The notes under the pieces were generated by a model. It searched no databases, was not told the DNA's origin, and saw only the letters and a list, made by a program, of their open reading frames with translations. A stretch of DNA of 64,000 nucleotides from an uncultured Candidatus Saccharibacteria bacterium (GTDB taxonomy: Bacteria; Patescibacteriota; Saccharimonadia; Saccharimonadales; JACDBH01), in assembly GCA_964490245.1 (NCBI GenBank), contig CAZBAF010000004.1, forward strand, positions 16,072-80,071, written 5' to 3'. Below are positions 6,102 to 52,808 of this stretch, piece after piece. Made by a program: the position numbers and the translations under genes. Every line of letters begins with the position of its first letter. Within the stretch, counting starts at the first letter, position 1.

Positions 6102-6261
6102 GCAGGTATTGTAGCGTATGTGCGTAAACCTACATTCTTCTTATTCTACATTATACCATACGGCGTCAAGTATGTCAATTCTCACCCTTGTCACAAGACT
6201 AAAGTATAAATTATAGAATACAGAGTACCGTATATCGTATTACGCATATCGTAGTACGAAT

Positions 6262-6726
6262 AAGCGGCCGGAGGCCGCTATAAAACAGTGCCCGTTAGGG
6301 CTTCTGCTTTTTTTGGGCATCGGCTTTTGCCCTGAGCGGATGTGCCAAACAGACAACGGCCAAAGGCGGCCAGGTGTTAAGCAATCCCATCCCAAGTAGC
6401 AAGGGATTGTGTGTTCTGGCCGTGCCGTTGTCTGGCTTGGCAACAGGCGCATCAAGGCAAAAACGCAGCCCAAGTTTTTTGGGTTCCGTTTTTGGCGATC
6501 CAAAAATGGAACAAGTTGCTTCTTGGTTGCAAGAAGGTATGAAAAGGAGTTAGTCTTTTTTTGCATACTTTTCTGCTGAACCAGAAAAGTATGGCGGTCA
6601 AAAGCCCGATGAGGCTTTACCGAAATTGTTTTAATAGAAAAGATAGACTTAAGACCCTACAGTGGTTTATAGAAATTACTTTGAAAATCCAAGAATAAAA
6701 CAGCCTGACTCTTGGTTCTAAGAACA
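6262..6726 (+). ncRNA. Unclassified multi-copy structured element, copy A (subtype 1, with an extra hairpin insert at 6466-6555)
   Basis: Shares the ordered scaffold and central domain with copies B and C. Stems covary and loops are conserved. The internal ORF 6240..6566(-) is not frame-conserved between copies. Confidence 0.6.
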
Positions 6727-9437: not shown

Positions 9438-9440
9438 GTT

Positions 9441-9824
9441 TTAGTTCTTGCGGCCAAGAGACAGGCTGTTTCATTATTGATCGTCGAAGTTATTTCGACA
9501 AACCCTGGGGACTCTTGACTTCACTTCCTTTTATTAAAACAATTTCGGTAAAACCCCATTCAGGGCTTTTGACCGACATCCTTTCTTGTACTGACAGAAA
9601 AGTAACCAAAAGAGCTCGGCCGGGAACACATCCCGTGACTGTGCTTCCAGTCGAAAAGAACAACGACGCGGCCAGAACTCAAAAATCCTTAACTACTTGG
9701 GATGGATTTTCTTAAACATACTGGCCGCCTTGGTCGTTGTTCTTTCGACGAAGCCCAATCAGGGTATGGTTCCATGCCCAGGAAAAGCTGAAACCCGCTA
9801 AAGCGGGCGCTGTTTTTTATAAAT
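9441..9824 (-). ncRNA. Unclassified multi-copy structured element, copy C (subtype 1, reverse orientation)
   Basis: The reverse complement aligns module by module with copies A and B. The central long stem is fully compensated: GTCGAAAGAACAACGAC/GTCGTTGTTCTTTTCGAC versus GCCAAACAGACAACGG/CCGTTGTCTGGTTTGGC. Confidence 0.6.
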
Positions 9825-9880
9825 CCCTACTTTCGTCGTTTACGACTCGTCAGAACGGCTATGTTATCCGTTGAGTAGGG
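9825..9880 (-). ncRNA. Type III hammerhead self-cleaving ribozyme
   Basis: The minus strand reads CCCTAC-TC|AACGG-ATAACATAG-CCGTT-CTGACGA-GTCG-TAAA-CGAC-GAAA-GTAGGG. All core nucleotides are present: CUGANGA, GAAA, the A15.1-U16.1 pair, the G10.1-C11.1 pair and C17. Predicted cleavage is between 9873 and 9872. Confidence 0.8.
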
Positions 9881-10005
9881 TTTCATGGGGGCAGAATCGG
9901 TTTTTTGACGGTGGTTAGACCGAAAGACGGGACAATCCCATCGCGATTCAACGCCTCCATGGCCTGGATAGTCCAGGGCTTTATCGAGTCTCCGTGTCAC
10001 GGGGA

Positions 10006-10443
10006 TCAGCCGGCGTTGCGCTGCTCGTTGAGCGAGCCGATACTGGCCAGCTTGGCCTTGCTGCCGAACCGCCGCCTAACTGTGTTCGCCACCAGCACGA
10101 TCAGGAACCCGATCACGTAACTGACGTTCAGGATGATGTACAGAGCCCAGGCGGGCCGAGTTACATAGGGATTGATGCTAATAAGGTAGCAAATGAGCCC
10201 ACCGCTAATCAGGCAAACGATCAGCATTCCAATGAAGTTTTCGATGGTCTCATGTCGCTTGCCTTCGCTGATCGTTATTAGCACAATGCTGCTAGCGGCG
10301 CCGATGCCGATCAGGCTGAACCCGAACATGGCCCAGAACTGCGTTCCTGGATCGGCATCGCCGGGCAGACGGAAGCTCAGGTGCCAGCAGGCGAAGCCGC
10401 TGACGAGGAACAGGACGAGGGTTGAGGCGACGATGAGTCGCAC
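10006..10443 (-). CDS. Small multi-pass membrane protein (hypothetical)
   Basis: 145-aa ORF with four hydrophobic segments. It is flanked by copies C and B of the structured element. Confidence 0.6.
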   Translation of the reverse strand: MRLIVASTLVLFLVSGFACWHLSFRLPGDADPGTQFWAMFGFSLIGIGAASSIVLITISEGKRHETIENFIGMLIVCLISGGLICYLISINPYVTRPAWALYIILNVSYVIGFLIVLVANTVRRRFGSKAKLASIGSLNEQRNAG

Positions 10444-10582
10444 GTCACGGACGGATATGATGCTCCTTAGGGAGACTCTTGGTTGTTCCCAGGTTTGGTC
10501 AAGGGTGGAAACGTCCCTATCCTCTCATTGTAGCATACTTTAATAATATTGTCAATACCTTACCCCTGTTGATGACTAAGAA

Positions 10583-10673
10583 GTGATTAGTTATTAGTGT
10601 TTAGTGATTATAAGCCAGAAGTTAGAAGTGAGTTATTTAGTAGATGGTAGTTAGTAGATAGTAGTTGGTAAAG
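10583..10673 (+). repeat. Heptanucleotide tandem array (13 units), stop-codon rich
   Basis: GTGATTA GTTATTA GTGTTTA GTGATTA TAAGCCA GAAGTTA GAAGTGA GTTATTT AGTAGAT GGTAGTT AGTAGAT AGTAGTT GGTAAAG. The 7-nt register is strict. Confidence 0.8.
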
Positions 10674-11095
10674 GCGGCGTTAGCCGCCATTTAAAACAGC
10701 GCCCTTTAGGGCTTCTGCTGTATCTGGGCATCGGCTTTTGCCCTGAGCGGATGTGCCAAACAGACAACGGCCAAAGGCGGCCAGGTGTTAAGCAATCCCA
10801 TCCCAAGTAGCAAGGGATTGTGCGTTCTGGCCGCGCCGTTGTCTGGTTTGGCAACAGACGCATCAAGGCGAAAACGTAAGCCCGAGCTTCTTTGCATACT
10901 TTCCTCCACCCCACGAAACGGGTTTCGTGGGGGCCCCGGTTGTCGGTACAAGAAAGTATGGCGGCCGAAACCCTGAAAGGGTTTGCCGAAAATTCTTTAT
11001 TAAACAAAAAAGACGGGGTTAAGACCCCCGCAGGGCTTTACCGAAACAACTTTGAAATCCAAAAATAAAACATTCTCACTCTTAGCTGTAAAAAA
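10673..11095 (+). ncRNA. Unclassified multi-copy structured element, copy B (subtype 1)
   Basis: Full scaffold present. Near-identical to A in the central domain (10727-10890). Carries the same insert hairpin as copy F. Confidence 0.6.
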
Positions 11096-11143
11096 TTTAA
11101 AAATTAGTTCTTAATCCAAGACAAGTCATGCCCATTAAAAAAC

Positions 11144-26073: not shown

Positions 26074-26128
26074 TAAAAAATAGTTTACGGTTTTTTATGG
26101 CAGAATGCGAGAGGGATATGGGGGAGGA

Positions 26129-26240
26129 GTGGTTAGTGGTTAGTGTCTAGTGATTAGTTATTAGTGTTTAGTGATTAGAAGCCAGAAGTGCGAAGTGAGC
26201 TAAGAGTAGATGGTAGTTAGTAGATAGTAGTTGGAATAGG
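26129..26240 (+). repeat. Heptanucleotide tandem array (16 units), stop-codon rich
   Basis: GTGGTTA x2, GTGTCTA, GTGATTA, GTTATTA, GTGTTTA, GTGATTA, GAAGCCA, GAAGTGC, GAAGTGA, GCTAAGA, GTAGATG, GTAGTTA, GTAGATA, GTAGTTG, GAATAGG. Confidence 0.8.
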
Positions 26241-26590
26241 CGACGTTAGCCGCCTATTAAAACAGCGCCCTTTAGGGCTTCGGCCTGTTCTGGCCATGCC
26301 CGCCTGCCCTGATTCGGGTGGTGTAATAAAACACAATAGAGAGCAAGGCGTCAGCCCCAATACTCAAATATGAAACTATTGGGGCCGACTGAAAGGAGTC
26401 CGCCTTACGTATTGTATTTTTGAACAACAAGCCGAGTCACGGCAGGCGGGCCGGCCGAGCTTCTTTGTATTCTTTTCTGTCGACACAGAAAAGAATGTCG
26501 GTCAAAAGCCCTGTAAGGGCTTTACCGAAATTGTTTTAATAGAAAAGATAGACTTAAGACCCCGCAGGGGTTCATCGAAATAAGTCTTAA
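26238..26590 (+). ncRNA. Unclassified multi-copy structured element, copy D (subtype 2)
   Basis: The 5' and 3' modules match subtype 1. The central domain (26292-26455) is different and is shared, with covariation, by copies E and F. Confidence 0.6.
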
Positions 26591-27156
26591 AAATCAATCC
26601 CCTTATTAGCAAGAAACTTATCATCAAAGTGGTGTTTCATTTTGGTCATGTGGGTAGCGATGTCGACAATATCCAGTAGGTCTTCCGGGAAGTTGCGGCC
26701 GGTCAGACACAGGCTGGTCTTGCCTGCCCGCTTTTCTATCAGTTCTTTAAGTTGGTCTTTGGTGAGCAGGCCGTCATTGACGGCGTTGTTGATTTCATCG
26801 CATATGACCAGATCGTAGTTTCCGCCGGCTGCTGCCTGCAGGGCGGCATTGAACGTATCGGCGGCGGCCTGTTTGTGCTCTTGTTCGGTTACGTCTTTTT
26901 CGCTCAAAGCGCCGGCGTTATAGAACCCCTTGCCGCCCTTATGAAACAGCAGCTTATCGCCGTACAGCGGCTGGATGCTTTCGATAAAATCATGCTCGCT
27001 CACCTGCCAGGATTTGACGAACTGAATAAACGCCACCTGCCAGCCGGCACCGAGTGCGCGCGCCAGCAGGCCAACAGCGGCAGACGTCTTGCCCTTGCCC
27101 TCGCCGGTGTAGACGACTACAACCGAATCTTTGGTCTGATAATCCTCAAATGCCAT
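26587..27156 (-). CDS. Cob(I)yrinic acid a,c-diamide adenosyltransferase (CobA/BtuR type)
   Basis: 189 aa with YTGEGKGKTSAA.G...RA.G.G..V...QF.K and ..CDE. Confidence 0.8.
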   Translation of the reverse strand: MAFEDYQTKDSVVVVYTGEGKGKTSAAVGLLARALGAGWQVAFIQFVKSWQVSEHDFIESIQPLYGDKLLFHKGGKGFYNAGALSEKDVTEQEHKQAAADTFNAALQAAAGGNYDLVICDEINNAVNDGLLTKDQLKELIEKRAGKTSLCLTGRNFPEDLLDIVDIATHMTKMKHHFDDKFLANKGIDF

Positions 27157-27934: not shown

Positions 27935-28140
27935 TTGTTTTGCTCCTTTTCTTTGACAGGCAGTTCAATGACGCTGAATTTCTGTAAGACAAAAATCGCG
28001 GAGCCCATCAGCCCGGCAACCAGCGCGGTGACCAGGATGGTAATAAGAATTATCTCCGGCAACGAGTGGGTAACGGCCTCGGCGACGGTTTGGTGATGTA
28101 CTCCGTTATGGGCGAATGTATCCATATCTTTATTATACAC
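27931..28140 (-). CDS. Small membrane protein (hypothetical)
   Basis: 69 aa with one TM helix. A 4-nt overlap joins it to the downstream redoxin gene. Confidence 0.45.
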   Translation of the reverse strand: MYNKDMDTFAHNGVHHQTVAEAVTHSLPEIILITILVTALVAGLMGSAIFVLQKFSVIELPVKEKEQNK

Positions 28141-28181
28141 CTGATTACTTTTTATATAAGCCTGCTTGCTATAATAACGGT

Positions 28182-28802
28182 ATGAACAAATACAAGACGG
28201 TTGCGTTGCTGGTTGGTATAGGGTTTTTGGGCGGAGTGCTGTGGCTGGCGGCCATGCGGTTCTTTCTTGTTGCCACTCCCGAGACGCACTATCATGCCAA
28301 TTTTGCCGTCTATATCAACGGGCAGCGTGAGGCGTTTGAAGAGTTTACTTACTATGAAGAAGTTGCCGCCTGCACCAGCGGCTATGCTGATAACCCTAAG
28401 GGGCGCGTACACATGCACGATCAGGTCAATGATGTTATCCATGTGCATGACAAGCGGGTGACGTATGGCAACTTTTTTCAGAATATCGGCTGGAATGTCG
28501 GGCCCGGCTATATTGCTACCCTGGACCGGGTCTATGTAGCTGACGAAGATAACACAGTGGTGTACATGCTTAACGGCGAGAAAGTTCGCGATATCAGCGG
28601 CCGTGTGATCGGCAATCTGGACCGGCTACTGGTGGCCTATGGCGATGCCTCTGATGAGGAGCTGCAGCGATGGTACGATGACGTGCCAGCCACCGCGGAA
28701 GAGGTCAACAAGTATCAGGATCCTGCCAGCTGCAGCGGCATAGGCGGTGCGGGTTATGACTCTTTGGGTAATCGCATCAAGCGCGCCACTTTTTGGCCGT
28801 GA
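28182..28802 (+). CDS. Membrane-anchored His-rich hypothetical protein
   Basis: The ORF runs from 28116, but MNKYKTVALLVGIGFLGG... at 28182 gives a signal-anchor. A TATAAT box at 28170-28175 lies 6 nt upstream, which suggests a leaderless mRNA. Confidence 0.6.
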   Translation: MNKYKTVALLVGIGFLGGVLWLAAMRFFLVATPETHYHANFAVYINGQREAFEEFTYYEEVAACTSGYADNPKGRVHMHDQVNDVIHVHDKRVTYGNFFQNIGWNVGPGYIATLDRVYVADEDNTVVYMLNGEKVRDISGRVIGNLDRLLVAYGDASDEELQRWYDDVPATAEEVNKYQDPASCSGIGGAGYDSLGNRIKRATFWP

Positions 28803-28806
28803 GCCT

Positions 28807-29290
28807 GAGTTATTGGTAGATAGTAGTTAGTAGTTGGTATATGGAATAGGCGACAAAGCCGCCATTAAAAAACGCCCGCTTTAGCGGGCTTCTGCTGTGT
28901 ATGGCAATGCCCACCTGCCCTGATTCGGCTGTTCGTCAAAAATACAATAGAGAGCGAGGACTCAGTCCAAAACTTCTACCTAAAATCAGTATGAAGTTTT
29001 GGACCGACTGGAAGGAGTCGTCCGAGCGTATTGTATTTTTGAACAACAAGCCGAGTCACGGCAGGCGGGCCGGCCGAGTTCTTTTGCATTCTTTTCTGTC
29101 GACACAGAAAAGAATGTCGGATAAAAGTCCGACAGGACTTAGCCGAAATGTCTTGTTGGCGCAAGAAAGAAAGGGTCGGTTCTTGGCTACAAGAACAAAA
29201 AGGCCCTTGAAAGGGCTGGTCGAAACTATTTAAATAAAAAGATGGTATAAAACCTGCATAACTAAGCCAAAACAAGACTTAAAATAAAAA
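28807..29290 (+). ncRNA. Unclassified multi-copy structured element, copy E (subtype 2, short heptamer leader, duplicated 3' module)
   Basis: Aligns with D and F. Two consecutive copies of the hairpin + CGAAA + AT-rich module sit at 29120-29155 and 29199-29255. Confidence 0.55.
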
Positions 29291-40968: not shown

Positions 40969-41040
40969 TATTGCCTCCTGTTTGCAGGTATTCTAGCCGG
41001 TTTTGGGTAGATTTACCAAGTCGTGTCCTATGTAAAGCGG

Positions 41041-41070
41041 CAACAAAAAACCGCCCTGTTCAGGCGGCAA
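41041..41070 (-). terminator. Rho-independent terminator
   Basis: The minus strand reads GCCGCC-TGAACAG-GGCGG followed by TTTTTTGTT. It lies downstream of 41182..41814. Confidence 0.55.
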
Positions 41071-41181
41071 AAGCGGGTATTCATACCCCTATCTTTTTAT
41101 TGTAGCACACTGTAAATAATTTGTCAAGTAAGAGAGATATTTTAAGGTCTAAACAGGGGTAATTTGCCAGTCCTTGTCGCT

Positions 41182-50179: not shown

Positions 50180-50333
50180 GTATGTATTGATAGTTACTGT
50201 TTAGTTTATGCTTACGGTTATTGTATCAGGAAGGAGCGATTGCATAAACTATTCAGCGCAAGTATCCGGTCTTTCTTTTGGTGCTAAGCGGCAGCATGTT
50301 TTCTTTTTAGCCGGCATGCCCATGGATGGAAAA

Positions 50334-50438
50334 GTGATTAGTGATTAGTGTTTAGTGGTCAGTGATTAGTGACCAGTGACTAGAAGTGAGGAGAGAGTTA
50401 TTTAGTAGATGGTAGTTAGTAGATAGTAGTTAGTAAAG
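50334..50438 (+). repeat. Heptanucleotide tandem array (15 units), stop-codon rich
   Basis: GTGATTA x2, GTGTTTA, GTGGTCA, GTGATTA, GTGACCA, GTGACTA, GAAGTGA, GGAGAGA, GTTATTT, AGTAGAT, GGTAGTT, AGTAGAT, AGTAGTT, AGTAAAG. Confidence 0.8.
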
Positions 50439-50852
50439 GCGGCGTTAGCCGCCTATTAAAACAGTGCCCGTTAGGGCTTCTGCTTTGTTGGCCATGCACG
50501 CCTGCCCTGATTCAGGCGTTGTTCAAAAGTACAATATCTGCAAACGTGTTAGCCTGCCAACTCTATTATGAAACTTGGCAGGCCGACTGAGCCGGGGCCC
50601 CCGCAGAACCTGTTCTGTGGGGTAAGGCCGAAAGGAGTCCACGTTTGCATTGTACCTTTTGACAACTGGCTGAGTCACGGCAGGTTTTCCGCCCGAGCTT
50701 CTTTGCATCCTTTTCTCCACCCCACGAAACAGGTTTCGTGGGGACCCCGGTTGTCGATACAAGAAAGGATGTCGGTCAAAAGCCCTATAGGGGCTTTACC
50801 GAAAATGTTTTTAAAAAAAAGATGGGGTTAAGACCCCGCAGGGGGTCTATAG
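50438..50852 (+). ncRNA. Unclassified multi-copy structured element, copy F (subtype 2 with two insert hairpins)
   Basis: Aligns with D and E. The central stems are compensated (GCAAACGTG/CACGTTTGC versus AAGGCG/CGCCTT). It shares an insert hairpin with copy B. Confidence 0.6.
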
Positions 50853-50970
50853 GAGCATAGCCATTAGCAGCGTAGTACGATTTAACCAGCAGTTCGCCTC
50901 TTTACCAAAGAACACCCCGCCCCTGCCTTGCACCAGCCAGCATTTCTAGCTACACTAAACCATAAGAACT

Positions 50971-52728: not shown

Positions 52729-52758
52729 TTGACAAAAGCATAAGAAGTATGCTATAAT
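52729..52758 (+). promoter_or_regulatory. Orphan consensus promoter (TTGACA-N18-TATAAT)
   Basis: Exact hexamers. No ORF lies downstream before the terminator at 52781. Confidence 0.45.
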
Positions 52759-52780
52759 GAGAAGACAGGGTAATAAAATA

Positions 52781-52808
52781 GCGCCACGAGATAAGTGGCG
52801 CTTTTTTT
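52781..52808. terminator. Rho-independent terminator (bidirectional)
   Basis: GCGCCAC-GAGATAA-GTGGCGC followed by TTTTTTT. It also serves the convergent gene 52824..53084. Confidence 0.7.

Follow-up and report, generated by a model that had tools for sequence, protein, structure and literature searches.

The DNA analysed here (the window) is a stretch of 64,000 nucleotides (nt) from an uncultured Candidatus Saccharibacteria bacterium of the candidate phyla radiation (CPR; assembly GCA_964490245.1, contig CAZBAF010000004.1, positions 16,072-80,071, forward strand), whose genome is assumed from knowledge of the group to be of roughly the 1-Mb class. On the minus strand at 9825-9880 it carries a complete type III hammerhead ribozyme, placed between a gene for a small predicted membrane protein and one copy (copy C) of a large element that is repeated in the window. 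A preliminary description of positions 9825-9880 had been made from the letters and a list of open reading frames (ORFs), without database searches, and its account of the motif, from the letters and core positions to the pairs, the CUC cleavage site and the helices, holds in full. The parts of the ribozyme and of the transcription unit leading into it are:

9825..9880, minus strand: type III hammerhead ribozyme (sequence, descriptor, fold, covariance model R1, covariation)
9880-9874 with 9831-9825, minus strand: helix III, 6 bp plus the A15.1-U16.1 pair (7 in all)
9872..9873, minus strand: predicted self-cleavage site, 3' of C17 (9873), by hammerhead consensus numbering
9872-9868 with 9858-9854, minus strand: helix I, 5 bp, 9-nt loop
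9853-9847, minus strand: core CUGACGA (C3-A9)
9846-9843 with 9838-9835, minus strand: helix II, 4 bp, UAAA loop
9834-9831, minus strand: GAAA, which contains G12-A14 (GAA)
9881..10005, minus strand: conserved structured 3' untranslated region (UTR) of 125 nt, from the stop codon to the ribozyme
10006..10443, minus strand: orphan gene for a 145-amino-acid (aa) protein with ~4 predicted hydrophobic segments, the transcript of which would run into the ribozyme
10515-10532, minus strand: start motif GGATAGGG after the promoter of the small gene
10527..10555, minus strand: near-consensus promoter of the small gene, TTGACA-17-TACAAT (with TG)

The hammerhead, its homologs and the gene ahead of it

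From 9880 to 9825 the minus strand reads CCCTAC TC AACGG ATAACATAG CCGTT CTGACGA GTCG TAAA CGAC GAAA GTAGGG. The A15.1-U16.1 (A9831 with U9874) and G10.1-C11.1 pairs are both present, the cleavage triplet is CUC and the topology is that of type III, in which loops close helices I and II while helix III is open. A purpose-written type III descriptor, searched on both strands, matched the window exactly once. Amongst 300 dinucleotide-preserving shuffles of the window, there were no matches with the 5/4/7-bp helices of the actual motif and two matches to a relaxed descriptor with 3/3/3-bp helices (0.007 per window). The minimum-free-energy fold of the 56-mer is the three-way junction, which is retained in a fold with 236 nt of context (z = -3.0). 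The motif scored 78.9 bits with R1, a covariance model built in this analysis for these hammerheads, while the Rfam family Hammerhead_3 (RF00008, clan CL00010) gave a local match only (26.7 bits, model positions 7-48, E = 0.002 for 651 nt) that leaves helix III unscored; the gathering score of that family, 48.5 bits, is a curation cut-off and not a biochemical criterion.

Two homologous loci were reached without using the ribozyme as bait, L004 through P0121, the single homolog of the small protein (42% identity) amongst 5.8 billion proteins, and L009 through a PEGA protein that is 99.6% identical to that of L004. The order in L004 is the end of the sortase gene, an inverted element copy, the same promoter, the small gene, the 3' UTR, the hammerhead, an element copy and the PEGA gene, and L009 holds a third variant of the hammerhead at the position it has in the window and in L004. 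Whether homologous loci keep the ribozyme had been raised in the preliminary description; both do, at the syntenic position and with compensatory changes. Between the three sequences, 7 of the 16 pairs are altered on both sides and 97.9% of the paired cells can pair, compared with 19-59% in slid controls, with no change in the core or at the CUC site and with UAAA or UAGA as loop 2. The helices are kept by double changes in these independently found homologs while the loops and flanks diverge.

A wider alignment of eight sequences had 96.8% of cells paired, a percentage that is partly so by construction because the set was chosen with a pairing filter, for which reason the test with three sequences is the clean one. 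In the wider alignment, compensatory changes occur at 10/16 pairs, the core is invariant in all eight homologs except at N7, the A15.1-U16.1 pair is invariant and, in L011b, the triplet is CUA and the 1.1-2.1 pair covaries. Loop 2 is UAAA in seven of the eight sequences and the AU...AG ends of loop 1 are kept in most while the stems vary, a pattern that suggests constraint; a tertiary contact between loops 1 and 2 is required in hammerheads for fast cleavage at physiological Mg2+. With this evidence the hammerhead is very probably real and under selection. Hammerheads are the most studied small ribozymes, and the motif at 9825-9880 is a new member of this described class in a new context: it lies on a CPR chromosome, belongs to a set that Rfam systematically misses and is coupled to a repeated structured element not described before.

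The ribozyme is co-oriented with the gene at 10006..10443, as the preliminary description stated, and a consensus scan of the minus strand from 10005 to 9825 returned no terminator-like or promoter-like site. The 3' UTR folds into a hairpin (CCUGGA...UCCAGG) and a multi-branch domain, for which CAUGGAGG and CC(U/C)CCAUG form the closing stem and which ends 3 nt ahead of the ribozyme. Mean column identity in the UTR is 81% (window, L004 and L009), compared with 42% identity for the protein, and one inner hairpin is altered on both sides between the three sequences in an alignment judged by eye; the UTR at 9881-10005 may itself be an RNA element. The same promoter with a AGATAGGG start is also found in L004, L027 and L033. 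Two further sites in the window, 41040-41125 (minus) and 52730-52806 (plus), have consensus promoters (TTGACA-17-TACAAT or TATAAT) with the start motif AGATAGGG or AGACAGGG and a strong intrinsic terminator ~45-55 nt on, and look like very short small-RNA genes.

The repeated element and its junctions with hammerheads

The element that follows the ribozyme is present in the window in six copies of 360-480 nt, five on the plus strand and copy C on the minus strand:

6264..6725, plus strand: copy A, GC hairpin at 6264-6278
9440..9824, minus strand: copy C, ~385 nt, 274 bits by nhmmer, strand assigned by co-orientation only
10673..11100, plus strand: copy B, GC hairpin at 10673-10688, divergent from the small gene
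26239..26600, plus strand: copy D, GC hairpin at 26239-26254
28849..29250, plus strand: copy E, GC hairpin at 28849-28863, no ribozyme
50438..50857, plus strand: copy F, GC hairpin at 50438-50453
9794-9807, plus strand: terminator-like P1 site in copy C
28889-28874, minus strand: terminator-like P1 site in copy E

Copies A, B, D, E and F start with a GC hairpin of 15-16 nt; (T)AAAACAG and then a further hairpin, P1, come next. In the alignment of all six copies the hammerhead occupies the position of this GC hairpin, directly before (T)AAAACAG and P1 of copy C, in agreement with the preliminary description. Copy C, directly 3' of the ribozyme, comprises an A-rich linker, P1, a long rod-like hairpin and 3' hairpins, and its far end abuts the stop codon (9437) of the convergent PEGA gene. 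The consensus fold, built from seven copies of one subtype, has a rod of ~65 bp, compensatory changes at 36 of 80 pairs and modular inserted hairpins. This covariation supports a structure in the element, the copies of which have a mean column identity of 55% within the genome, with compensatory change. The GC hairpin was also considered as a decayed hammerhead and rejected, the resemblance being limited to a short GTAAA in copies B and F with no remnants of the core.

Copies C, D and F had no match to an Rfam 15 family at E-values up to 10 (noise only) and, at the Rfam gathering threshold, the whole window returned two tRNAs only. Matches to the element profile are confined to the window, L004, L009, L010 and L027, plus a fragment in L033. 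A DNA pattern taken from the six window copies (AAAGNATGKCGGNNNAAANYC...TTNNCCGAAA) proved too strict, missing even the copies in L004 and L009; neither genome contigs nor viral contigs contained a match to it, and metagenomes gave one chance match inside a coding region (L001). A spurious ORF called inside the element matched only itself in a protein-database search.

Several further features were observed in or beside individual copies. Copies B and F share an extra inserted hairpin (CCACCCCACGAAAC...GTTTCGTGGGG; 10900-10935 and 50715-50750), and their 3' ends (11013-11035 and 50820-50845) contain a GGGG/CCCC/GGGG run in which two mutually exclusive hairpins are possible, one of them a strong terminator on the opposite strand. 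Tracts with a 7-nt period lie directly 5' of the GC hairpins (6220-6263, 10582-10672, 26128-26238, 28806-28848 and 50326-50437), with units of the type AGTGATT/AGTTATT... and then TAGTAGATGGTAGTTAGTAGATAGTAGTTGG, or CGTATAT-type units in copy A. A 30-nt TAGTAG... core of the tract has no C on the element strand, so that the other strand is free of G there; the tract might serve as a promoter region or bind proteins as an array, or its other strand might act much like a Rho-loading site. L033 (1290-1383) holds, next to a decayed hammerhead, a miniature element that lacks the rod and consists of heptamer repeats, a GC hairpin and a terminal hairpin. The rods of copies D, E and F contain GTGACT-18-TACAAT (26411-26440, 29030-29059 and 50649-50678, all minus strand) on the strand opposite to the hammerhead orientation, with a weaker mirror image in the other arm. 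As the main interpretation of the rod arms, promoters were rejected, given that A/B/C-type copies have no usable -10 box and that the arms covary as a helix; the promoter-like sites are probably a by-product of the palindrome.

The union of hammerhead and element is not confined to the window. In five junctions from three lineages, the element or its 3' part comes after a hammerhead on the same strand: nhmmer places the element directly downstream and co-oriented in copy C of the window, in L004, in L009 and in L027 (3983-3690), and a second hammerhead in L027 (7547-7493) is followed by the 3' domain of the element alone and then by a forward terminator-like hairpin, with no convergent gene. 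In all five the ribozyme and the element point in the same direction and the GC hairpin has given way to the ribozyme, although the five count as fewer than five independent observations because the cassettes are related to one another. A hammerhead where the GC hairpin would be, the arrangement recognised in the preliminary description, therefore recurs in other lineages and beside a different cargo gene (L027).

The cassette in question is the small gene bracketed by copies B and C as an inverted pair (9438-11143, 1.7 kb). It is missing in the closer relatives as judged by PEGA identity (L002, L003, L007 and L032) and present at the PEGA-sortase site in L004 and L009. In L027, a locus of a Saccharibacteria genome, the cassette occupies another chromosomal site beside a topoisomerase gene and carries a different protein, a soluble cargo of 131 aa, in the order inverted element copy with GC hairpin, promoter with a AGATAGGG start, gene, hairpin, hammerhead and element copy; the region around the PEGA gene of the same genome (L034 and L035) has no further copies or ribozymes. 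Searches of Pfam, NCBIfam and PADLOC gave no function for the cargo proteins, with no family match for the 145-aa protein. The neighbouring genes of the window are chromosomal (PEGA-domain protein, sortase, DUF1697, DUF4367, TerC and CobA), and the homologs of the PEGA protein assign the window to Candidatus Saccharibacteria. The PEGA-sortase site itself is variable, being empty in L003 (8037-8152), L007 and L032 and occupied in L005 (11474-12140) by a different insert with a similar promoter, which suggests, on sequence comparison, that the cassettes may be exchangeable.

Hammerheads across CPR genomes

A scan of one genome per species with a loose sequence pattern from the three ribozymes of the window, L004 and L009 returned 21 loci, of which 15 belong to metagenome-assembled genomes (MAGs) of Saccharibacteria, Berkelbacteria and other Patescibacteria, plus one labelled Nanoarchaeia. 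Complete type III hammerheads are present in 15/15 of these loci, with two in some, and R1 recovered 20 further complete hammerheads (and one cut at the end of its locus) in CPR and CPR-like loci at 37-80 bits. In the six non-CPR loci returned by the pattern there was no convincing hammerhead with R1, five scoring 15.7-18.6 bits and one having no match. Amongst 17 loci of the CPR scan examined with Rfam, none of the 19 hammerheads reached the gathering score. The Rfam threshold, proposed in the preliminary description as a check on the window ribozyme, is failed by that ribozyme (26.7 vs 48.5 bits), and the failure is uninformative for this lineage because 19/19 CPR hammerheads fail too. CPR/Saccharibacteria genomes thus carry many canonical type III hammerheads that are absent from standard annotation because the Rfam threshold misses them.

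Where an ORF was called, the CPR hammerheads usually lie 20-130 nt downstream of it on the same strand, and most have a stable hairpin 0-13 nt upstream (mean fold z = -2.63, n = 20 sites), which fits protection of the 3' end of the upstream product. The shared anatomy is an ORF, a stable hairpin, a hammerhead and a downstream RNA. Another gene takes the downstream position in L011 and L018, and the general job of CPR hammerheads therefore appears to be transcript separation, which is the role described for hammerheads in bacteria (PMC3088659).

A second, very uniform class (CCC UC AACAC ... GUCGU ugaaaauu ACGAC GAAA GGG) occurs in Berkelbacteria, Saccharibacteria and other Patescibacteria, each example directly after a hairpin and, in several cases by our own reading, ~45-100 nt ahead of a presumed intrinsic terminator. 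At least three copies are present in one Berkelbacteria MAG. The members located are:

L012, 2405-2462
L015, 5520-5576
L016, 391-332
L020, 7236-7292
L021, 260-204
L023, 784-840
L029, 7651-7595

The viral contigs scanned had no matches to such hammerheads, and a literature search for hammerheads in Saccharibacteria, CPR or Patescibacteria returned nothing relevant. L033 (1031-1090, minus strand) holds a decayed hammerhead of 18.6 bits that has lost the CUGA box and overlaps a 40-aa ORF behind a AGATAGGG promoter. A hammerhead of the same kind is found at L026 (2051-2105), on a contig of the MAG labelled 'Candidatus Nanoarchaeia archaeon', beside a gene that we take to resemble bacterial ribosomal protein S9; this bin may be mislabelled or contaminated.

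Type III (and type I/II) hammerheads of bacteria and prophages have been described as flanking genes and cutting multi-gene transcripts (Perreault et al. 2011, PMC3088659). The CPR examples have the same core and three-helix junction, lie in intergenic regions or UTRs co-oriented with genes and can likewise be assigned an inferred role in transcript cutting. Unlike the published examples, they occur on CPR/Saccharibacteria chromosomes and not in prophages, with no integrase or phage genes amongst those examined and no matches in viral contigs, and all of the examples scanned fall below the Rfam gathering threshold. The downstream partner in the window also differs, being a large repeated non-coding element and not a gene.

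Proposed processing of the transcript and competing explanations

The reading that combines these observations, to which we would give a probability of about 0.55, is that the hammerhead self-cleaves a read-through transcript and releases the RNA leading into copy C, thereby maturing the element. Transcription would start at the strong promoter (10555..10527) and read through the gene, the structured 3' UTR and the ribozyme, which would fold co-transcriptionally and, as the intact core and the covariation indicate, cut after C9873. By the chemistry of the class, the 5' product ends in a 2',3'-cyclic phosphate and the 3' product starts with a 5'-OH, here predicted at A9872. The mRNA would then keep a structured 3' end bearing the cyclic phosphate, and the downstream RNA would begin with the ribozyme body (the helix I and II hairpins), continue into copy C and reach at least as far as hairpin P1, probably running through the whole ~385-nt element. 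In such a transcript the ribozyme would substitute for the 5' GC hairpin, and for whatever start signal accompanies it, of the stand-alone copies. A role for the ribozyme as the processing module of the whole element, acting as a functional RNA, is plausible.

Several observations weigh against this reading. Both strands fit the element equally, with consensus folding energies of -69.8 on the ribozyme strand vs -71.5 on the other, G-U and A-C counts of 15 vs 12 in the pairs shared by both folds and a mixed composition of unpaired bases. On the strand opposite the ribozyme, P1 and its invariant A-tract score as an intrinsic terminator, and the 3' flank of P1 is U-rich on the ribozyme strand too; the terminator-like P1 means that the transcript could end shortly after the ribozyme, perhaps 30-40 nt past it, and that the element could come from the other strand. 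The hammerhead lies below the Rfam gathering threshold, at which no hammerhead was returned in the window, and the five junctions, their cassettes being related, do not count as independent. The preliminary description had copy C as the sole copy behind a same-strand gene, a claim that does not stand: the repeat tract of copy E, which has no ribozyme, starts 3 nt past the stop codon of ORF 28116-28802 (228 aa, apparently genuine), and the argument that the only copy behind a gene needs a ribozyme fails as stated. Nor do the other copies sit behind divergent promoters, as had been supposed, with no near-consensus forward promoter found upstream of copies B, D, E and F and a single weak candidate upstream of copy A, in a genome that uses near-consensus promoters at other sites.

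Much of this would be accounted for if the ribozyme served the mRNA only, trimming the transcript just upstream of a bidirectional terminator (P1) and discarding a tail of ~90 nt, with the element being either the 3' end of an extended PEGA transcript that runs on the opposite strand as far as P1 or active as DNA, and with the adjacency of ribozyme and element reflecting shared terminator space between convergent units. The terminator-like P1 and its invariant AAAA tract on the opposite strand (9794-9807, plus; 28889-28874, minus), the symmetric strand tests and the missing forward promoters of copies B, D, E and F are all consistent with such trimming. By our own reading, the far end of the element also lies in most instances no more than ~40 nt from the place where a convergent gene stops. 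The second CPR class, ~45-100 nt upstream of presumed intrinsic terminators, makes a hammerhead just before a terminator a recurrent layout, and the GC hairpin and heptamer tract of L033, without a rod, read as a terminator between co-directional genes. Set against these points, 5/5 junctions agree in how the element, or its 3' domain, is oriented with respect to the ribozyme, and one of these junctions (L027, 7547-7493) has no convergent gene and leads through the 3' domain to the forward terminator-like hairpin; further, the P1 flank on the ribozyme strand fails the terminator criterion and L004 and L027a have no convincing P1 terminator in either direction. We consider trimming of the mRNA alone the less likely reading.

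It is more doubtful still, and in our view improbable, that the ribozyme belongs to a mobile or exchangeable cassette, made up of an inverted element copy, a promoter, a variable small gene, the hammerhead and an element copy, and that its cleavage is part of the cassette's own life cycle and not of host RNA maturation, for instance by defining an RNA intermediate as in retrozymes or viroid-like RNAs with rod-shaped folds. Such a cassette would explain the presence of 9438-11143 in L004 and L009 and its lack in L003, L007 and L032, the same promoter and start motif with different cargo in L027 and L005, the bracketing by the element as an inverted pair (with its ~65-bp rod and 36/80 compensatory pairs) and the hammerhead relic in L033. 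However, no recombinase, reverse transcriptase or transposase was seen amongst the cassette-neighbour genes examined, there were no matches in viral contigs, the single ribozyme per unit does not allow unit-length excision, and the copies in the genome are old (55% mean column identity, with compensatory change) and show no recent burst. The sub-threshold Rfam score, the short helix II (4 bp) and the existence of relics (L033, 18.6 bits) could be taken to mean that the motif resembles a hammerhead by chance or is a relic, inactive and without present function. This is very improbable given that even a far weaker motif is expected by chance less than 0.007 times per window, and given the intact core positions and the double changes that maintain the helices in independently found homologs as the loops and flanks diverge.

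The proposed release of the element RNA by self-cleavage has partial counterparts in known systems. R2 and other non-LTR (long terminal repeat) retrotransposon RNAs reportedly carry a ribozyme like that of hepatitis delta virus (HDV) at the 5' end; there, as proposed here, the ribozyme marks the 5' border of a multi-copy element and frees its RNA from an upstream co-transcript. The class of ribozyme differs, the HDV-like ribozyme cutting at its own 5' edge while a type III hammerhead stays mostly on the 3' product, and R2 is eukaryotic and protein-coding, whereas the element here is a putative RNA. Retrozymes, viroids and Obelisk-like RNAs join type III hammerheads to rod-shaped RNAs, and the window hammerhead likewise adjoins a predicted long imperfect rod. 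Those RNAs are circular replicons or retroelements with two cleavage sites per unit, unlike the single ribozyme per unit found here, and the copies here are DNA-encoded and scattered in the chromosome, with no sign of unit-length excision. In its size range, multi-helix architecture with modular insertions and covariation the element resembles large bacterial non-coding RNAs of Rfam such as OLE, GOLLD, HEARO, ROOL and raiA, but it has no Rfam 15 family match. We know of no large bacterial non-coding RNA in Rfam that uses a hammerhead for 5' maturation.

A broader proposal remains tentative, and we would not yet favour it: that type III hammerheads form a CPR-wide processing system, situated in 3' UTRs and intergenic regions and missed by current annotation, which, in one Saccharibacteria branch, provides an alternative maturation of a new class of non-coding RNA that is large (~300-480 nt), rod-shaped and encoded in multiple copies, in which stand-alone copies would start with a GC hairpin and gene-trailing copies would be freed by the ribozyme, which stays on as a 5'-OH leader. 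The locus also reveals a repeated structured element, so far undescribed, of which the 64 kb contain six copies. Should the link between hammerhead and element be confirmed, this would be, as far as we are aware, the first natural bacterial hammerhead that matures a large non-coding RNA.

Synthetic insulators of the RiboJ type are said to place a hammerhead and a hairpin ahead of a downstream RNA; the arrangement proposed here is similar in that a type III hammerhead would give the downstream RNA a defined 5'-OH and a structured leader, whatever lies upstream, and different in that RiboJ is engineered and its downstream RNA is an mRNA. If true, the locus would be a natural counterpart of these insulators. 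CPR/Saccharibacteria genomes are tiny and have a reduced RNA-processing machinery, and the common anatomy of ORF, protective hairpin, ribozyme and downstream RNA leads to a testable proposal, that self-cleavage would replace RNase-dependent formation of 3' and 5' ends in these organisms.

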